DNA of 64,000 bases from Candidatus Thorarchaeota archaeon (lineage in GTDB: Archaea; Asgardarchaeota; Thorarchaeia; Thorarchaeales; Thorarchaeaceae), in contig SDNP01000008.1 of the NCBI GenBank assembly GCA_004524445.1, forward strand, positions 29,080-93,079. Reading direction: 5' to 3'. The notes under the pieces were generated by a model. The model was not told where the DNA came from and made no database searches. It saw nothing but the letters and a program-made list of their open reading frames with translations. This document shows positions 33,888-46,426 of this stretch, piece after piece (the stretch's first letter is position 1; each line of letters opens with the position of its first letter). The position numbers and the translations under genes are program-made.

Positions 33888-34121
33888 CTATTCTTCCTTC
33901 AGGGAATAAACCAGCTCTTCGTTTTCATGACCTGTGACTTCAATTTGACCCCACCGCAGCATGCCCATAAGATTCCAGACAATCAAGTCTTTTGGATATT
34001 CCGTCCTTGAGGATAGCTGACTGACTGTGGCAGCTCCTTCTGTCAACATTTCTTGGATTTTCCGTCTTTGTCTGCGCACTTCGCCGCGTTTCTGGTCGAA
34101 GAATTGTCGGAACTTGGTCAT
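33888..34121 (-). CDS. Small winged-helix protein at the end of the hdr-mvhD operon
   Basis: ATGA overlap with the mvhD stop; 'ATVSQLS..T.YPK..IVW.L' wHTH pattern. Confidence 0.7.
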   Translation of the reverse strand: MTKFRQFFDQKRGEVRRQRRKIQEMLTEGAATVSQLSSRTEYPKDLIVWNLMGMLRWGQIEVTGHENEELVYSLKEE

Positions 34122-34567
34122 TTCCATTCTCTCCTAATTGGTCCGAGCTCTCTCACTTGTTCTGTCAATTTATTGACTCCATCTGCAAAGACTTGTGCCT
34201 CAGAAGCCGAGGCCCATTGCAGCCTTACTCTTCGTGGATTCAATCCAGATTGCTCAATGGCCTTTTCCATCAATGCCCATCTGGCTCGAGCCTTTAAGTT
34301 TCCGTTTGTGTAATGACAATCGCCTGGGTGGCAGCCTGAAACCAACACACCATCGGCACCCATTTCTAGGGCAGATAGTATGAACTCAGGTGTGATACGC
34401 CCAGTACAATTCACTCGGATGATCCGTGCGTTTGGGGCGTATTGTATTCGTGACGTGCCAGCAAGGTCCGCCCCAGCGTAGCTGCACCAATTACAACAGA
34501 ACGCAACTATCTGTGGCTCCCATTCCTTAGAATCCGACTGTGAAGGGGCTGTCTTCGCCTGTGTCAT
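34118..34567 (-). CDS. mvhD: [2Fe-2S] hydrogenase/Hdr adaptor subunit MvhD (Cys form)
   Basis: 'FCCNWCSYAGAD', 'RVNCTGR', 'GCHPGDCHY', 'WASASE'. TAATG overlap with the upstream gene. Confidence 0.95.
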   Translation of the reverse strand: MTQAKTAPSQSDSKEWEPQIVAFCCNWCSYAGADLAGTSRIQYAPNARIIRVNCTGRITPEFILSALEMGADGVLVSGCHPGDCHYTNGNLKARARWALMEKAIEQSGLNPRRVRLQWASASEAQVFADGVNKLTEQVRELGPIRREWK

Positions 34568-36315
34568 TACTTGGCACCTCCCTCTACAAGCTGTTCGGGG
34601 CAAAGATATGCTTCCACCATCGTCAATATCTGTTCATCGGTAGAGTGTCGCATTATTATCGCTCCACTTGGACATGCCGCAGCACAAGTACCACACCCGT
34701 GACATTTTGCCTCAGTCACTTTTGCGACTGCGGGTTCTTTTGTTTGATCAATAGCAATCGCCCCATATGGACAAGCTGAAACACAGGTATGGCATGAGGA
34801 ACATAGGTCCTCAATGACATGTGAAACTGTAGATTCGATTTCCACCTCGCCTCGAGCCATAAGGGCAACAGCCTTTGCTGCCGCACCACTTGCATCAACA
34901 ATAGATTCAGATGCACCTTTTGCAGCTTGGGCCGTTCCAGCAATCATGACACCGGCGGTGTGTGTGGTCAGCGGAGCCAGTTTGATATGCTCCGGGTTGA
35001 AGAATCCATCAGGACTACGGGTCAGACTAAATAGCTTTGCAACCTCTTGGGTGCCTTCAGCCGGTAGCATTGCAGATGCAAGAACAACCATATCTGGGAA
35101 AAACTCCAACCTATCACCCGAGAGCACATCGGTCCAGGTTATTGTAATCTGTCCATCTTTGTAGTGCACGACGGGTTTCTCATCGGTTGGAAACTTGCTG
35201 TATATAACATGTTTGCCCCGCGATTGTCTGTGAATTTCTTCATGATTCTTTCCATAAGTTCGTATGTCTTGGTAGAGGATTACTACCTCATCTAATTCAT
35301 CCCTAAGCTGAGATGCTGTATTTGCCACCGCAGTACAGCAATACCGTGAGCAGTGTTCGTGTCCCTTCGTATCAGGCTCTCGGGACCCGACACACCCAAT
35401 CATTGCAATCTTCTTCACCGGTCGTCCATCACTAGGTCTCTTGAGATCTCCGTCAGTCTTCATCTCCTCTAGTTCTGCCAAGGTAACGATGTCTGGAGAC
35501 CAGTCATATCCGTAGTAACCTTCGGGCTTGAAAGATTTGAAACCAGTCGCGATGACAGCTGTTCCGATATCCAGCTTCTCTTCCTTGTTTGTATCTTTAT
35601 TTTTGATTGTTACCTCAAAATTGCCGATGTATCCATCAAAGCCCACAACTTCGCTATTTGTGTAAACTTTGATGCGCTTATGTTTCAGAATTCTTTCCGA
35701 GAGTTCATCTACAATCTCCTCTCCAGACCTACCTGTCGGGTAAAGGCTGTGCCATTTTTTCACATGCCCCCCCAAATCTGGCTCACGTTCTACAAGGACA
35801 ACGTCGAACCCTCTGTCTGCGATGTCAAGCGCAGTGTGCATTCCAGTCACACCTCCACCCACTACCAGCGTTCGCGGAGTTACAGAAACGCTCTTGATGG
35901 GTAGGGATTCAAGCTTGGCGGCTCGAGCCACTGACATACGAACAAGATCTTTCGCCTTCTCTGTGGCTGCCTCTGGTTCTCTCATGTGGCACCAAGATAC
36001 GTGCTCTCGCAAATTAACCTGCTCGAAGAGATATCTGTTAAGACCCGCCTCTTCCACGACTCGTCTGAACGTTGGTTCATGCATTCTTGGAGAACAACTC
36101 GCAACCACAACCCGATTCAGGTTGTGTTCTGCTACTTTATCCTTGATTAGCTGTTGACCGCTGTCAGCACACATAAACATGTCATCAGTTGAGTAGACAA
36201 CATAGGGCAGATCCTGTGCCATCTCTGCCACTGACACGACATCCACTGTTCCTGCGATGTTGTGACCACAGTGACACACGAAGACGCCAATTCTTGGTTC
36301 TGCATCATCAGACAT
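34567..36315 (-). CDS. hdrA: HdrA-like subunit (N-terminal domain, FAD domain, C-terminal ferredoxin; QmoB-like)
   Basis: 'RIGVFVCHCGHNIAG', GGGVTG, 'CVGSR', C-terminal 2x[4Fe-4S]. Lacks DKTFPTLDC and the internal ferredoxin. Start ATG 36315 with GGAGG RBS. Confidence 0.9.
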   Translation of the reverse strand: MSDDAEPRIGVFVCHCGHNIAGTVDVVSVAEMAQDLPYVVYSTDDMFMCADSGQQLIKDKVAEHNLNRVVVASCSPRMHEPTFRRVVEEAGLNRYLFEQVNLREHVSWCHMREPEAATEKAKDLVRMSVARAAKLESLPIKSVSVTPRTLVVGGGVTGMHTALDIADRGFDVVLVEREPDLGGHVKKWHSLYPTGRSGEEIVDELSERILKHKRIKVYTNSEVVGFDGYIGNFEVTIKNKDTNKEEKLDIGTAVIATGFKSFKPEGYYGYDWSPDIVTLAELEEMKTDGDLKRPSDGRPVKKIAMIGCVGSREPDTKGHEHCSRYCCTAVANTASQLRDELDEVVILYQDIRTYGKNHEEIHRQSRGKHVIYSKFPTDEKPVVHYKDGQITITWTDVLSGDRLEFFPDMVVLASAMLPAEGTQEVAKLFSLTRSPDGFFNPEHIKLAPLTTHTAGVMIAGTAQAAKGASESIVDASGAAAKAVALMARGEVEIESTVSHVIEDLCSSCHTCVSACPYGAIAIDQTKEPAVAKVTEAKCHGCGTCAAACPSGAIIMRHSTDEQILTMVEAYLCPEQLVEGGAK

Positions 36316-36316
36316 C

Positions 36317-37648
36317 TCAGTCGCCTCCATCATTAAGGGAAATGGTTGCACGCATTGCCGCGGCGCTTCCCTCAGATACAGAATCGGGAATGTCTTTTGG
36401 TCCCTCTGCACATCCACAGACGTAAACTCCAGATATAGTAGTATCAACGGGAGTTGAAAGGGTGTCTCGGGCCTCGACATAGCCATTTTCGTCAACATCT
36501 AATCCTATCTTTTCTACGAGCTCTGCAAGTTCTGGCGGTGGTTGAATGCCAGGACTGAGAACAACTAAGTCATGTTCAACTTGAAGCACTTCACCGGTCT
36601 CCGTGTCTTCCACAGTTACAATCAAATTATTCGATTCAGGGTCTTCGACAACTTCTCCAACCCTGCCACGTATGAATTTCACGCCAAATCGCGTCTTCGC
36701 TCGCTCGTAGAACTGCTCGAAGTCTTTTCCAAATGCGCGGATGTCTAGATAGTAGACAGTCACATCTGTGTCGGGTTCGTGTTCTTTTGCCATTACGGCA
36801 TTCTTGATGCCGTACATGCAACAAATTCGCGAGCAAAGCGGAACGCCCTTGTTCACATCTCGAGCACCTACGCATTGAATAAAGGCGATGCTTTGGGGTA
36901 TCTTACCGTCACTCAATCGAATCATGTGTCCTGCAGTTGGACCTGCAGCATTGATTAAACGTTCATATTCCATTGCATGAATGACGTTGGGGAACTTGCT
37001 ATATCCAAAACGAGAGTATTCTGAAACATCAAAGAGATTGTATCCTGTTGCGATGATGATTGCTCCGACATTCAGCGTTATAGTTTCGTCTCTCTGGCTA
37101 TGGTTTATTGCCTCTCGCTCGCAGGCGGTGACACATCTGCTGCACTCGATACAGTTCTCCATATCTACCGTAACCACACTGGGAGTTGCTTGTGGAAAGG
37201 GCATATAGACCGCCTTTCTGAAACCCAGATTCTGGTCGAACTCATTTGGAACCTCGATAGGGCAGACTTCAATACACTGACCGCATCCTGAGCATAGTTC
37301 TTCTTCTACCATTCGTGCCTTCTTCAAGACCTCAACAGTGAAGTTTCCCTCTTCCCCTGTAACTTCCTTAACCTCCGAATATGTAAAAAGCTCGATGTCG
37401 GGATGACGTCCAACCTCACTCAGTTTCGGTGTGAGAATACATGCAGAGCAGTCCAATGTTGGAAACGTCTTGTCGATTTGAGCCATGCGTCCACCAATAG
37501 AGGGAGATTTTTCAACCAAATAGACATGGAAACCCTGATTTGCAATATCAAGGGCAGCTTGCATGCCAGAAACGCCTCCACCAATAATGAGTGCGTCTTT
37601 AGATGGTGATTTCTCCTTCATCTTTGTGGATGACTTTGTGATTGTCAC
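36317..37648 (-). CDS. hdrA: HdrA-like subunit (FAD domain with inserted ferredoxin, no N- or C-terminal domains; QmoA-like)
   Basis: GGGVSG, 'DKTFPTLDCSAC', two ferredoxin motifs, 'CSRICC', 'GPKDIP'. Confidence 0.9.
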   Translation of the reverse strand: MTITKSSTKMKEKSPSKDALIIGGGVSGMQAALDIANQGFHVYLVEKSPSIGGRMAQIDKTFPTLDCSACILTPKLSEVGRHPDIELFTYSEVKEVTGEEGNFTVEVLKKARMVEEELCSGCGQCIEVCPIEVPNEFDQNLGFRKAVYMPFPQATPSVVTVDMENCIECSRCVTACEREAINHSQRDETITLNVGAIIIATGYNLFDVSEYSRFGYSKFPNVIHAMEYERLINAAGPTAGHMIRLSDGKIPQSIAFIQCVGARDVNKGVPLCSRICCMYGIKNAVMAKEHEPDTDVTVYYLDIRAFGKDFEQFYERAKTRFGVKFIRGRVGEVVEDPESNNLIVTVEDTETGEVLQVEHDLVVLSPGIQPPPELAELVEKIGLDVDENGYVEARDTLSTPVDTTISGVYVCGCAEGPKDIPDSVSEGSAAAMRATISLNDGGD

Positions 37649-37652
37649 TTTC

Positions 37653-38525
37653 TTAACCTCCCAGAGTATTCATAATTGTTTCAGGACTGATTCGATTGAG
37701 CGCCAGGCCAAGAGCATCGTCCTCGATTCCTATTGCTGGCCCAAGCAGCTGTGGTAATGTGATTGTTGGCAAGAGTTGGCTTCTATCAATTTCACCAGAA
37801 AATTGTGCTTGAGTCAATTGGACATTACAAAATACACAGGCAGTTACAACACCCTGAGCTCCTGCCTTCTTGATGTTGGTAATCTTGTCCTGACCAATAG
37901 CTGTTGCGATGCCTTCATCCATCGCTAACATTGGACCTCCACAACATCGAGTCTTTCCAGTATAGTCAACAGGAGTTGCTCCTACAATGCTAATAAGGTC
38001 ATCAATAATCGTAGGCTCTTCGGGATCATCTACTTGAACAATATCGCCAGGTCGAGTCACATGGCATCCATAGTGTGCTGCAAGCTTCAGGCCATTATAT
38101 GGCCGAATAACTGCCGCCCCTATTTTCTCAAACCCAATATCTTCATTGAAAACCTGCAAGAGATGCCGCACTCTAGTTGTACCAGAATATTCAAGGTCTT
38201 CGTCGGCCAAAAGTTCATTGAGTTCATCCTTGGCTTCATCATTATTATCAAGATAATGCTTGTTTACTTTCAAAGACCCCGAGCAGGCCCCACAAATAGC
38301 TAACACATCTAGTCCCTCTTTTTCAGCAAGAGCTAATATTCTTCCACTCATTGCGGCGTAAGCGTTCCTTGATAGAGATTCTACGTATTGTGCGCCACAA
38401 CAATTAGCATCCTCCATTATTCGAACTTTCACACCTAATTTTTCTAATACTGCAATGGTAGCGGCTTCATAATTAGGAAGTCGAACTGGGGTCGTACAGC
38501 CGCGATAAAGCATAATCTCGTCCAT
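37653..38525 (-). CDS. hdrB: Heterodisulfide reductase subunit B
   Basis: Two CCG domains ('NCCGA', 'HYGCH..RP', 'CCGG', 'CVFC'). Confidence 0.93.
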   Translation of the reverse strand: MDEIMLYRGCTTPVRLPNYEAATIAVLEKLGVKVRIMEDANCCGAQYVESLSRNAYAAMSGRILALAEKEGLDVLAICGACSGSLKVNKHYLDNNDEAKDELNELLADEDLEYSGTTRVRHLLQVFNEDIGFEKIGAAVIRPYNGLKLAAHYGCHVTRPGDIVQVDDPEEPTIIDDLISIVGATPVDYTGKTRCCGGPMLAMDEGIATAIGQDKITNIKKAGAQGVVTACVFCNVQLTQAQFSGEIDRSQLLPTITLPQLLGPAIGIEDDALGLALNRISPETIMNTLGG

Positions 38526-39022
38526 TATTCTTCTACCTCGGGAAAGTATTTCTTCTTGACATGTTCTACGAATTTCTTATTCCATTTCAAATTCATTTCG
38601 AGACCCAAATCATCTCGGTCATCTTCAATGAAATCCGAGTAAGAATCTTCCAAAAGCCAACCATCTTTGAGAACTGTTTCAACGGTCTGCTTATAGGCAG
38701 ATGGAACATGGCCTTCTTTTGCAGCTATACGTCGAACTGCGTGGAATATATCTGAAGGACTAACTCCTTCTTGACATCTCTCCTCGCACATCATACAAGA
38801 CATGCATAGCCACGGCTGAAGACTTTTGAGAACTTCTTCACGTTCGCCTAGCAGTATCTTCTGTATGAGTTGACGGGGTCGATACTTGTCCGATTCGCGG
38901 GCAACCATGCAGGTTGCAGTGCAAATTCCGCATTGAACACATTTCTTTATTGCTTCGCCTCCGGGAACCTTTTCAAGCTCCTTAGCGAAGTCAGAGGATG
39001 GATGGTGAAGCTCGCCTTCCAA
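38525..39022 (-). CDS. hdrC: Heterodisulfide reductase subunit C
   Basis: 'CVQCGICTATC', 'WLCMSCMMCEERCQEGV'. Confidence 0.92.
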   Translation of the reverse strand: MEGELHHPSSDFAKELEKVPGGEAIKKCVQCGICTATCMVARESDKYRPRQLIQKILLGEREEVLKSLQPWLCMSCMMCEERCQEGVSPSDIFHAVRRIAAKEGHVPSAYKQTVETVLKDGWLLEDSYSDFIEDDRDDLGLEMNLKWNKKFVEHVKKKYFPEVEE

Positions 39023-43376: not shown

Positions 43377-43584
43377 ATTATTTCTCTCGCGTATGCGGTT
43401 TGCAGGACTTGAAAAGTAGCGTAAATCTCTGAAGGAAGTGCATTGGTAGATCCAGTAACTGTCTCATCTGGAGTATGTGCGCATACGTTGTTGGTACCTG
43501 CATGTTGAGCGAAAACTAGTTTGCTTATTACCTTATGTGTCGAGCTAAATAGATTAAAAATGATTCAAGGAGGTTACCGGCGCC

Positions 43585-43642
43585 CCGGGCAGGGGTGTCC
43601 GATTCGGCTCACAACTTTACGCCGAACCTTCATCCGCCGCTG
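43585..43642 (-). promoter_or_regulatory. Eukaryote-type SECIS element
   Basis: mRNA reads AUGA(43633-43630)-A-GGUUCGGC-GU-AAA-GUUGUGA-GCCGAAUC-G-GA(43599-43598): kink-turn quartet, 8-bp helix, unpaired AAA. It lies about 80 nt downstream of the in-frame UGA. Confidence 0.85.
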
Positions 43643-43791
43643 GTCACAATCTCCTTCCTGGCTATCTCGCGACCCTCATCATCCACGATGGTTAGATGAG
43701 CGCCGCAGGATAGTCAGCAGTCATAGCAGCGGACTACCATCTCCAAGAGATTGAGTAGCCCTTCTGGTATATCATCTGTTATTTTTTTCAA
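43630..43791 (-). CDS. vhuU: Selenocysteine-containing hydrogenase small peptide VhuU (53 aa, Sec at UGA 43716-43714)
   Basis: Manual translation MKKITDDIPEGLLNLLEMVVRCYDCULSCGAHLTIVDDEGREIARKEIVTSGG* matches the hydrogenase L2 motif E...R.YD(P)CxxCxxH that is missing from the upstream large subunit. Start is uncertain (TTG 43791). Confidence 0.9.
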
Positions 43792-43800
43792 CTCCTTTTT

Positions 43801-45117
43801 TTAGGTCTTAACGAGTGGTTCTGGTAATTTGAGATCCTCATGGGCTTTGTCTTCAAAGATTTGCTTCGCTGCCACCATCAATGATTTCTCAATTCCAGCA
43901 ATATTGTTGTTGGTTGCCACGATTAGATTCGCCTTCACAACTATTCCCTCTTCGTCGCACTCGTAATTGTGGAGAAGGGTTCCTCGTGGTGCCTCAACTA
44001 TGCCAACGCCGTCTCCCGCCTTTGGTTCAACATCTGATAATTTGATATCTGTACTAACAATATCAGGGTCTTCAAGCAAGCTCTTGATCCATTCAGCAGC
44101 CTGAACCATCTCCACAACTCGAGCGTAGTGGAACGCGAATGTATGGTGTGAAGGCCGCCCAATCAATTCACGCATCTCCTCAAGGGCTTCTTGAGCCAAC
44201 GGAGTGGCCATCTTGTCAGCTACATTGCACCGAGCCAGAGTATTTGCACGCCAGATTCCATCGGGATAACCAGCTGGTTTGAAGTAGGTATGAGTGGCAT
44301 AGGAATGGTTGGGAACATGTTCACCGTAGTACTTTGTGTACTCGCTTGGTTCAAAGTCGGCTACTATTTTCCCGTCAGGATCCATCACTCGAACATTTCC
44401 TTCATAGATATCTAGAACACCATCATTGGTCAGCCCAAGATAGTATGTTGGAGTGACAGCAACCTTTGTCACAACATCTACATAGTCAGTGATTACCTTT
44501 TTGGCAAGGTCAACTGTCTTGTCTATATTCTCCAAGAGTTCTGGCACTTTTTCCACCCATTCGTCGCGCTCTTGTTCACTGAGGGGGGATAGCATGCCGC
44601 CAGGAATTGCGGTTGTTGGATGGATTGCCTTTGCTCCCACTGTTCTGCACATCTCTTGCCCAAACTCCATCAGCTTGATTGCTTGGACAGCAACATCAGG
44701 AAGATGCTTCAGTATTGCTGCCACATTTCGAACTGCAGGGTCAGCAAAAGGTCCAAATACAAAATCGGGTGCGGCAAGAGCATAGAAATGAATTGCATGC
44801 GAGGATAGCTGTTTTGCCTCCATCATTAGACGACGCAGTTTGATTGCCGGTTCGGGAGGTGTGATATCCCAAGCTGCTTCCACTGCCTTTGTAGAGGCTA
44901 AGTGGTGAGGGATTGGACAAATGCCGCAGATTCGTGGAGCAATCCGAATAGCCTCCTCCATTGGTCTGCCTTCAAGGAATTTTTCGAAAAATCGGGTGCT
45001 TCCAACGTTGAATTGAACATCTTTGACCTTCCCGTCTTCACTCAATTTGATAGTTAATGCACCGTGTCCTTCGAGCCTTGTTACTGGGTCTACTCTAATC
45101 GTCTTCTCTTTTGCCAT
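43801..45117 (-). CDS. vhuA: Group 3c [NiFe(Se)] hydrogenase large subunit lacking the C-terminal L2 motif (VhuA/MvhA)
   Basis: 'PVTRLEGH', L1 motif 'RICGICP..H', 'EAPRGTL.H', 'ANLIVAT'. Ends without DPCxxC. Confidence 0.92.
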   Translation of the reverse strand: MAKEKTIRVDPVTRLEGHGALTIKLSEDGKVKDVQFNVGSTRFFEKFLEGRPMEEAIRIAPRICGICPIPHHLASTKAVEAAWDITPPEPAIKLRRLMMEAKQLSSHAIHFYALAAPDFVFGPFADPAVRNVAAILKHLPDVAVQAIKLMEFGQEMCRTVGAKAIHPTTAIPGGMLSPLSEQERDEWVEKVPELLENIDKTVDLAKKVITDYVDVVTKVAVTPTYYLGLTNDGVLDIYEGNVRVMDPDGKIVADFEPSEYTKYYGEHVPNHSYATHTYFKPAGYPDGIWRANTLARCNVADKMATPLAQEALEEMRELIGRPSHHTFAFHYARVVEMVQAAEWIKSLLEDPDIVSTDIKLSDVEPKAGDGVGIVEAPRGTLLHNYECDEEGIVVKANLIVATNNNIAGIEKSLMVAAKQIFEDKAHEDLKLPEPLVKT

Positions 45118-46037
45118 TATTTCTTCGCCTCCTCGCGTTTCTGCCTGATTCTACCAAGATGACTAGTTGCATAGGTGAATCTGTAGAAAGTGGCAAGGGG
45201 ATCCTTTACCTTCTCAAGGAGCTTCTCCGGTTCGATAGGGGCATATGTACCAAGCATTGACATTGAAGCGGCGCCTTGGTCAGACATGATTGGTGGCGGT
45301 GGGCCAAAACAACCTCGACAGGTTGAGCCCTTGTTGACACACTGTCCCTCACAGAGACCCCATGTTGCAGATCCTAGACAGACGTATCCTTGTTCCAGAA
45401 GGCAGCTATCGGGATCAGCTTTCCCTTCATATGGACGCAGAACCTCTGGAATTGGAGTTTCTTTCTTCTCGCGATTACAATAGTGACAAACGGTATGAGG
45501 AGGTAGATTAATCTCCTCTCCGTTTAGCAATGCAGTCAAAGCAGTGAGAATGAGTTCTGATGTGGGCGGGCAACCAGGCAAGTAGATGTCAAAATCCACA
45601 ATGTCTTTGTTCGGTCTTACTGTTGGCTCAATTGCAGGCAAGTTCTCTGTTGGCACTTTTCCTCCAGAAACGGTCTTATTGTTTCTGAATTTCACTTCTA
45701 GTGCATCATCGATATCGTAGAAGTTCGCGAGACCAGGAATACCTCCAAAACATGAACATGTTCCAAAGGCAATTAGGGTCTCACACTTATCACGCATAAC
45801 CTTTAGCAGATGAACGTCTTCTTCTGTTCTTGCCATTCCCTCATATAGTCCAATCTTGATTGATTTATTGGGATAATTTTCCAAGTCTTCAAGCTTGTAA
45901 TCGACAACTCCTGCCCAGAATTTGATGTCCAGGAGAGGCAGGACATCAGCTAACTTGAGATGGATGTCAACCAGACTTTGGAAACAACCCCAGCACGAAC
46001 TTCCCTGTGCCATTGCTACGGGTACTGGATGACTCAT
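45117..46037 (-). CDS. vhuG: Group 3c hydrogenase small subunit (VhuG/MvhG)
   Basis: 'SSCWGC', 'GTCSCFGGIPGL', 'LPGCPP', 'CLG.AT...C...C......CRGCFGP'. GGAGG RBS and TAATG coupling to the large subunit. Confidence 0.92.
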   Translation of the reverse strand: MSHPVPVAMAQGSSCWGCFQSLVDIHLKLADVLPLLDIKFWAGVVDYKLEDLENYPNKSIKIGLYEGMARTEEDVHLLKVMRDKCETLIAFGTCSCFGGIPGLANFYDIDDALEVKFRNNKTVSGGKVPTENLPAIEPTVRPNKDIVDFDIYLPGCPPTSELILTALTALLNGEEINLPPHTVCHYCNREKKETPIPEVLRPYEGKADPDSCLLEQGYVCLGSATWGLCEGQCVNKGSTCRGCFGPPPPIMSDQGAASMSMLGTYAPIEPEKLLEKVKDPLATFYRFTYATSHLGRIRQKREEAKK

Positions 46038-46426
46038 TATCTGGCCTCCTCAAAGCGGGATACAATTACATTATTTCTGGATGATTTGGTTTTATTCGCA
46101 ATTTCCAATTTAGCTTGGTTTAAGCCATTTTTGCGATATTGGTCTAAGAAAATTGAAGACTGATTCATTTCCAGCTCTCCATCATGGGACATTTGCCTTC
46201 TATCTTGTGAATGTGTCTGGTAGGCCTATCAGTAAGAAACAGTTCCTCAGAAGCTGATGCCCACTGTGGTTTCATGGTTCGTGTGACGAAACATACATGC
46301 TTAATAGCTTTCTCCAATAGGACTTAGCTTCAGCGCCCGAATTTGTTGAAATAGCATATATTATCAGCATTTCCAGTACCAAGTGATTTAAAAATTGGTA
46401 GACAATATTAACTATAGTGATGATTT

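Follow-up and report, generated by a model that had tools for sequence, protein, structure and literature searches.

Evidence for a selenocysteine-containing VhuU completing the split large subunit of a [NiFeSe] hydrogenase in a Thorarchaeota archaeon

The Vhu hydrogenase of Methanococcales (M. voltae, M. maripaludis) has a large subunit split into VhuA and VhuU and works with VhuG, VhuD and Hdr. In the solved Methanococcus maripaludis structure 9SFI, VhuA and VhuU are separate chains (PMC13518236). The VhuU selenoprotein of Asgard archaea and its type of SECIS element have already been published (PMC4989117, PMC11227280 and PMC11291895). Mariotti et al. 2016 (PMC4989117) noted that the AUGA of VhuU.1 doubles as the stop codon, and the Asgard selenoproteome paper (ISME J 2024, PMC11227280) names the family FrhA/MvhA/VhuU and reports G[U/G]AAA SECIS loops in most frhA/vhuU genes of Thorarchaeia.

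We analyzed a stretch of 64,000 nt (the window) from the genome of a Candidatus Thorarchaeota archaeon, whose assembly is a MAG of 2.79 Mb in 64 contigs with 90% completeness and 5% contamination. The window was compared with 52 distinct vhuA-vhuU loci, mostly from Thorarchaeota MAGs, with some from Promethearchaeota (Loki) and one labeled Hermodarchaeota. Its vhuU resembles the published Asgard genes in every essential respect: a gene of about 50 codons follows a truncated vhuA, its only UGA falls on the Ni-ligand site, the AUGA core coincides with the stop codon, the SECIS loop is GUAAA as in Thorarchaeia, and the same Sec gene cluster is present. As in Methanococcales, the large subunit is split, Sec falls on the same aligned residue and the motif ends in SCxAH. 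The differences from Methanococcales lie in the residues before Sec (RAYDP-U in Methanococcus, RCYDC-U in this lineage), in the SECIS (the archaeal GAA_A type in methanogens, a eukaryote-like type here), and in the host, which is not a methanogen and has neither vhuD nor vhuB adjoining the operon. What is left as new is a hairpin in the coding sequence, a three-helix junction and a Cys-Sec pair; we found no mention of a Sec-codon hairpin, a three-helix junction or a Cys beside Sec in the three Asgard papers as far as they were searched.

Layout of the vhuGAU locus

The genes and coding features of the locus are listed below in window coordinates.

45117..46037, minus strand: vhuG, hydrogenase small subunit, 306 aa (PF01058 Oxidored_q6, E 3.9e-20)
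43801..45117, minus strand: vhuA, [NiFe(Se)] hydrogenase large subunit, 438 aa (PF00374, Pfam NiFeSe_Hases)
43630..43791, minus strand: vhuU, 53 codons from TTG to a TGA stop (43630-43632); start uncertain, either TTG 43789-43791 or ATA 43780-43782
43714..43716, minus strand: in-frame UGA at the first (Ni-ligand) position of D-x-[C/U]-x-x-C-x-x-H, predicted to encode selenocysteine
43633..43695, minus strand: C-terminal extension of 21 codons after the His, presumed from [NiFe] hydrogenase maturation to be removed

The initial annotation had placed a hidden vhuU behind a large-subunit gene lacking its C-terminal ligands, and its coordinates and layout of vhuA and vhuU were reproduced base for base on the minus strand. 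The stop codon of vhuG overlaps the start of vhuA. VhuA harbors the N-terminal ligand motif RICGICPIPHH and ends with ...PEPLVKT before the TAA at 43801-43803; DPCxxCxxH was absent from the C-terminus of the 438-aa product read from the minus strand. The TTG of vhuU (43789-43791) is located 9 nt past this TAA in the same frame as vhuA, and the peptide surrounding the UGA reads ...EMVVRCYDC-U-LSCGAH-LTIV.... The 21-codon extension is conserved, yet more variable than the ligand motif. Upstream of vhuG, neither vhuD nor a TGA-interrupted ORF was found. A 51-codon ORF at 46037-46192 shows only weak conservation in the genus and is unlikely to be a gene. Rfam and ARAGORN gave no matches in the window itself.

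The start codon of vhuU is less certain than its reading frame. In 44 of the 52 relatives the gene starts with an ATG 22 codons before Sec; this position is ATA in the window and in its congener, and both retain a TTG three codons upstream. This TTG is the only canonical start upstream, and a GGAG box abuts it with no spacer. Initiation is uncertain because ATA replaces the usual ATG and the GGAG box lies directly against the TTG. The initial annotation had estimated a mature VhuU of about 32 aa, which holds if TTG is the start; a start corresponding to the ATG of the relatives would give 29 aa. Either length presupposes cleavage after the His, which presumably occurs by analogy with [NiFe] hydrogenases, and a gene for a HycI-family protease (endopeptidase) is present in the genome. 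We also observed a CUCCUU tract at ~43562-43572 (minus strand), which lies beyond the SECIS junction, is complementary to the AAGGAG box preceding vhuU and is kept at the same place in most related loci.

Conservation of the UGA codon and the selenocysteine machinery

TGA was found at the same vhuU codon in 52/52 loci, well beyond chance expectation, within RC[YF]DC-U-L[SA]C[GA]AH. Since this codon is conserved across related loci, a sequencing error at 43714-43716 was excluded. Conservation of the VhuU peptide extends to either side of the TGA, and differences are concentrated at third codon positions. For codon positions 1/2/3, the fractions of sites that differ from the window were 0.11/0.03/0.51 upstream of the TGA and 0.19/0.11/0.32 downstream of it. 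As the initial annotation had anticipated, homologs are thus conserved beyond the UGA, and the codon periodicity persists past it.

To align the locus to solved structures, vhuA and vhuU were joined in translation across the TAA, purely as a search device. The closest solved proteins to VhuA were M. maripaludis VhuA (9SFI_g, E 3e-133, 418 aa) and MvhA (5ODC_F, E 1e-119). The read-through product is collinear with 5ODC_F, residues 7-414 corresponding to 4-411 and 442-475 to 417-450, and the ligand motifs align. In contrast to the split enzyme, MvhA is one polypeptide with Cys in place of Sec and without about 22 residues of the VhuA/VhuU junction. The VhuU peptide alone matched the 27-residue chain 9SFI_M (...RAYDP-X-YSCAAHM), in which X (Sec) aligns to the UGA of the window. 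The assignment of this UGA to the first position of the C-terminal ligand motif was thus borne out by the sequence, by the Sec of 9SFI_M and by the Cys of MvhA.

Among split relatives, a protein search yielded one Thorarchaeota protein (P0002, 50 aa, RCYDCCLSCSAH) with Cys (TGT) at the Sec position, which completes the UGA/Cys alignment called for by the initial annotation. Two unsplit Cys-type hydrogenases with DPC are also encoded in the same genome. The residues RCYDC-U (43714-43731, minus strand) form a C-x-x-C directly before Sec, which is invariant in 52/52 Asgard loci, and the Cys beside Sec is retained in the Cys-type relative as DCC. Methanogen VhuU and MvhA read RAYDP-[U/C] at this place.

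The genome also encodes the means to decode UGA. A tRNA-Sec scored 54.7 bits against the Rfam cut-off of 47 and was called by ARAGORN as tRNA-SeC with the anticodon TCA. Genes for SepSecS (480 bits) and an EFSec/SelB-like GTPase (279 bits) are located on the same contig, and a PSTK-like gene lies in the cluster beside the tRNA, with 142 bits under the family cut-off of 290. The selD gene is located elsewhere in the genome and carries one in-frame TGA. Every component sought was found, PSTK at this sub-cut-off score, in agreement with the earlier statement that Asgard archaea encode Sec.

Elsewhere in the genome we noticed an 80-codon ORF (G000:C52:53092-53334; L136:1093-1335, plus strand) that begins with a hydrophobic helix and is interrupted once by an in-frame TGA, within PDNRT-U-EEYEYID. 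Lying 30 nt past the ORF, at C52:53365, is a hairpin resembling a SECIS (AUGA, stem, GUAAAG loop), and the TGA, the motif and the hairpin are kept in three other Thorarchaeota genomes (L138-L140). The ORF matched no Pfam family and falls outside the seven published Asgard selenoprotein families. We regard it as a candidate new small selenoprotein.

RNA structures around the Sec codon and the stop codon

Three RNA structures were delineated on the minus strand.

43597..43633, minus strand: eukaryote-like (Loki-type, type I) SECIS, with AUGA at 43630-43633, an 8-bp stem, a GUAAAG... loop and a 3′ GA
43656..43719, minus strand: SRE-like coding hairpin of ~23 bp starting at the Sec codon (MFE fold)
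43575..43645, minus strand: three-helix junction, comprising a lower stem (43639-43645 with 43575-43581), the SECIS stem and a side hairpin (43583-43595)

The putative SECIS displays the features of lokiSECIS, an AUGA...GA core around an upper stem of ~8-9 bp whose loop begins with unpaired A's. Its 3′ side reads G-GA-C, its loop opens with GUAAAG, and its AUGA core overlaps the stop codon of vhuU. ATGA ends 50/52 vhuU genes. All eight upper-stem pairs covary, and 93% of the cells pair compared with 14-54% in slid controls. The GUAAA loop agrees with the loops reported for Thorarchaeia frhA genes in PMC11227280. The single Cys-type relative examined lacks an element of this type, and its gene ends in GUGA. 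The vhuA stop codon is never TGA (28 TAG and 24 TAA among the 52 loci), in keeping with the view in the literature that a nearby SECIS would cause read-through of a UGA stop. Folded by itself with plain MFE, the 3′ region did not outperform shuffled sequences; the signal emerged only from the comparative analysis. The element probably directs the recoding of UGA in vhuU. A covariance model derived from it (R1) had no genomic hits beyond the two vhuU copies and was rejected as an inventory of other selenoprotein genes, being too gene-specific.

The hairpin in the coding sequence recalls the eukaryotic SRE of SEPN1/SELENON, a stem-loop just 3′ of the UGA in a gene that also has a 3′ SECIS. The likeness is positional only, and the hairpin of the window is seen in Thorarchaeia but not in Loki sequences. 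Among 42 distinct sequences, 84% of the cells pair versus 34-50% in slid controls, and six pairs show double changes, one of which sets a Gly/Ala-changing base opposite a synonymous third position. The Loki rows appear by eye to pair poorly, in line with the failure of RNAz to find extra structure in Loki vhuU. For the single Cys-type relative that we folded, the long hairpin was not predicted. We consider the hairpin moderately supported as a conserved structure, because the structure was derived from the window sequence and coding constraint confounds the comparison.

In the three-helix junction, 87% of the cells pair and 16 of the 19 pairs are changed on both sides, while the window itself forms 5/7 pairs of the lower stem. 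RNAalifold with default settings on a wider alignment gave a different lower pairing; by simple count of pairs the three-helix model did better. We tentatively propose, with the odds somewhat against the proposal as a whole, that decoding of vhuU in Thorarchaeia goes beyond the published SECIS: the Sec-codon hairpin may be an SRE-like signal, the SECIS may sit in a three-helix junction, and the redox-active Cys that the Asgard-wide C-x-x-C-U would place next to Sec could form a protective selenenylsulfide with the Ni-bound Sec.

Hydrogenase class, second locus and alternative readings

The window also contains a module of heterodisulfide reductase-type genes.

34118..39022, minus strand: hdrC, hdrB, an HdrA-like gene, hdrA and mvhD (Pfam CCG, Fer4, Pyr_redox_2, FlpD)

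This module is located about 4.6 kb downstream of vhuU on the same strand and does not adjoin vhuGAU. The hdrCBA-mvhD genes likely encode the electron-accepting partner of the Vhu hydrogenase. The large subunit is nearest to MvhA/VhuA, the small subunit is of the VhuG type, and MvhD and HdrABC are encoded in the window. The PDB ranking, the hdrCBA-mvhD genes and the HycI-family gene together support an Hdr-linked enzyme of group 3c, the class to which the initial annotation had assigned it. Within the part of the module at 34118-37648 (minus strand), hdrA (643 aa) overlaps mvhD by 37 nt, and the longest hdrA ORF shares 182 nt, read in a different frame, with the upstream HdrA-like 443-aa ORF. 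No in-frame TGA interrupts hdrA or mvhD, so both appear to be of the Cys type here.

A second locus, mvhD-vhuG-vhuA-vhuU, lies on another contig (G000:C23:2850-5680, minus strand). Its VhuA is 67% identical to that of the window, and its vhuU starts with ATG and encodes a peptide identical to the window VhuU from T5 onward, T5 being the codon that follows the usual start. At the DNA level, the identity between the two loci is 65% for the vhuA 3′ ends, 100% from the Sec codon to the stop and 87% in the SECIS region, and the same contrast between vhuA and vhuU was observed for paired loci in two other genomes. Gene conversion, our first reading of this near-identity, was set aside because constraint on the RNA structure accounts for some of it at least; concerted evolution, constraint at the RNA level or a combination of the two could be responsible. 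We also encountered many truncated paralogs of vhuA, with ends reading ...LPDPMIK or ...PDPWIK (L087-L096, L102, L105, L106, L108, L111, L119, L121), and no vhuU was found within ~350 nt downstream of them. These paralogs may borrow VhuU from another locus.

We considered whether vhuU might be something other than a selenoprotein gene. The vhuA and vhuU frames of the window match and lie only 9 nt apart, and the usual vhuU ATG is ATA, as might be expected if a nonsense mutation had cut a whole large-subunit gene and the downstream frame with its UGA were an untranslated remnant. Such decay is very improbable, since 52 loci share the split and the TGA and keep the peptide under purifying selection, the frame relation of the two genes varies among loci, VhuA is intact and shares 94% identity with its counterpart in the congener, and the second locus encodes the same VhuU from T5 to the end. 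The matching frames would equally suit read-through of the vhuA TAA into a fused full-length large subunit, the split being merely apparent. This is the least credible of the alternatives: 36/52 loci are out of frame, a fusion would be about 22 residues longer than MvhA, and 9SFI shows the M. maripaludis VhuA and VhuU as two distinct chains. A third possibility is that the UGA really terminates translation, or that it is decoded without tRNA-Sec, for example through Cys/Trp misreading or a changed genetic code; in a related assembly, one gene caller did put W for TGA in a small ORF of no relation to vhuU. This is improbable too, if not quite to the degree of gene decay, because TGA also terminates vhuU and many other genes, which means that the code has not been changed, because the genome has a full Sec pathway and vhuU a covarying SECIS, and because the SECIS is missing as well from the one examined relative with a switch to Cys.

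The same frame comparison bears on the origin of the split. The initial annotation had taken the in-frame arrangement as a sign that a stop codon arose within a once-continuous gene. This suggestion did not stand: vhuU is in frame with vhuA in 16/52 loci (31%), which is the chance value of one in three, and the VhuA tail and vhuU leader add about 22 residues beyond unsplit MvhA, so that the in-frame layout of the window says nothing on how the split originated. The split is shared with Methanococcales, which indicates that it predates this lineage.

The best explanation, to which we assign a probability of about 0.93 on sequence grounds, is that vhuGAU is a Vhu-type, group 3c, Hdr-linked [NiFeSe] hydrogenase operon in which a Sec-containing VhuU completes the split large subunit. 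The central proposal of the initial annotation is supported by the anatomy of the locus, the TGA in 52/52 loci, the Sec/Cys alignment, the SECIS covariation and the Sec machinery. The large subunit would be made in two pieces, VhuA with the N-terminal Ni/Fe ligands and VhuU with the C-terminal ones. The first C-terminal ligand would be Sec, inserted at the UGA by tRNA-Sec and the EFSec-like factor under the direction of the eukaryote-like SECIS, whose AUGA core would at the same time supply the vhuU stop codon, and the hairpin beginning at the UGA would probably assist. VhuU would then dock onto VhuA, with its 21-residue tail presumably cut off after the His. We infer Sec insertion itself, the start codon, the processing and the coupling to Hdr.

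As vhuU is missed by standard gene calling, the hydrogenase appears broken in annotations, though it is probably a functional [NiFeSe] enzyme. The present analysis provides a correct annotation of vhuU together with supporting data for two less-described RNA features. It points to a probable [NiFeSe] hydrogenase that would feed electron bifurcation of the heterodisulfide-reductase type in an Asgard archaeon, and the annotation of vhuU bears on the metabolic reconstruction of the Asgard relatives of eukaryotes.
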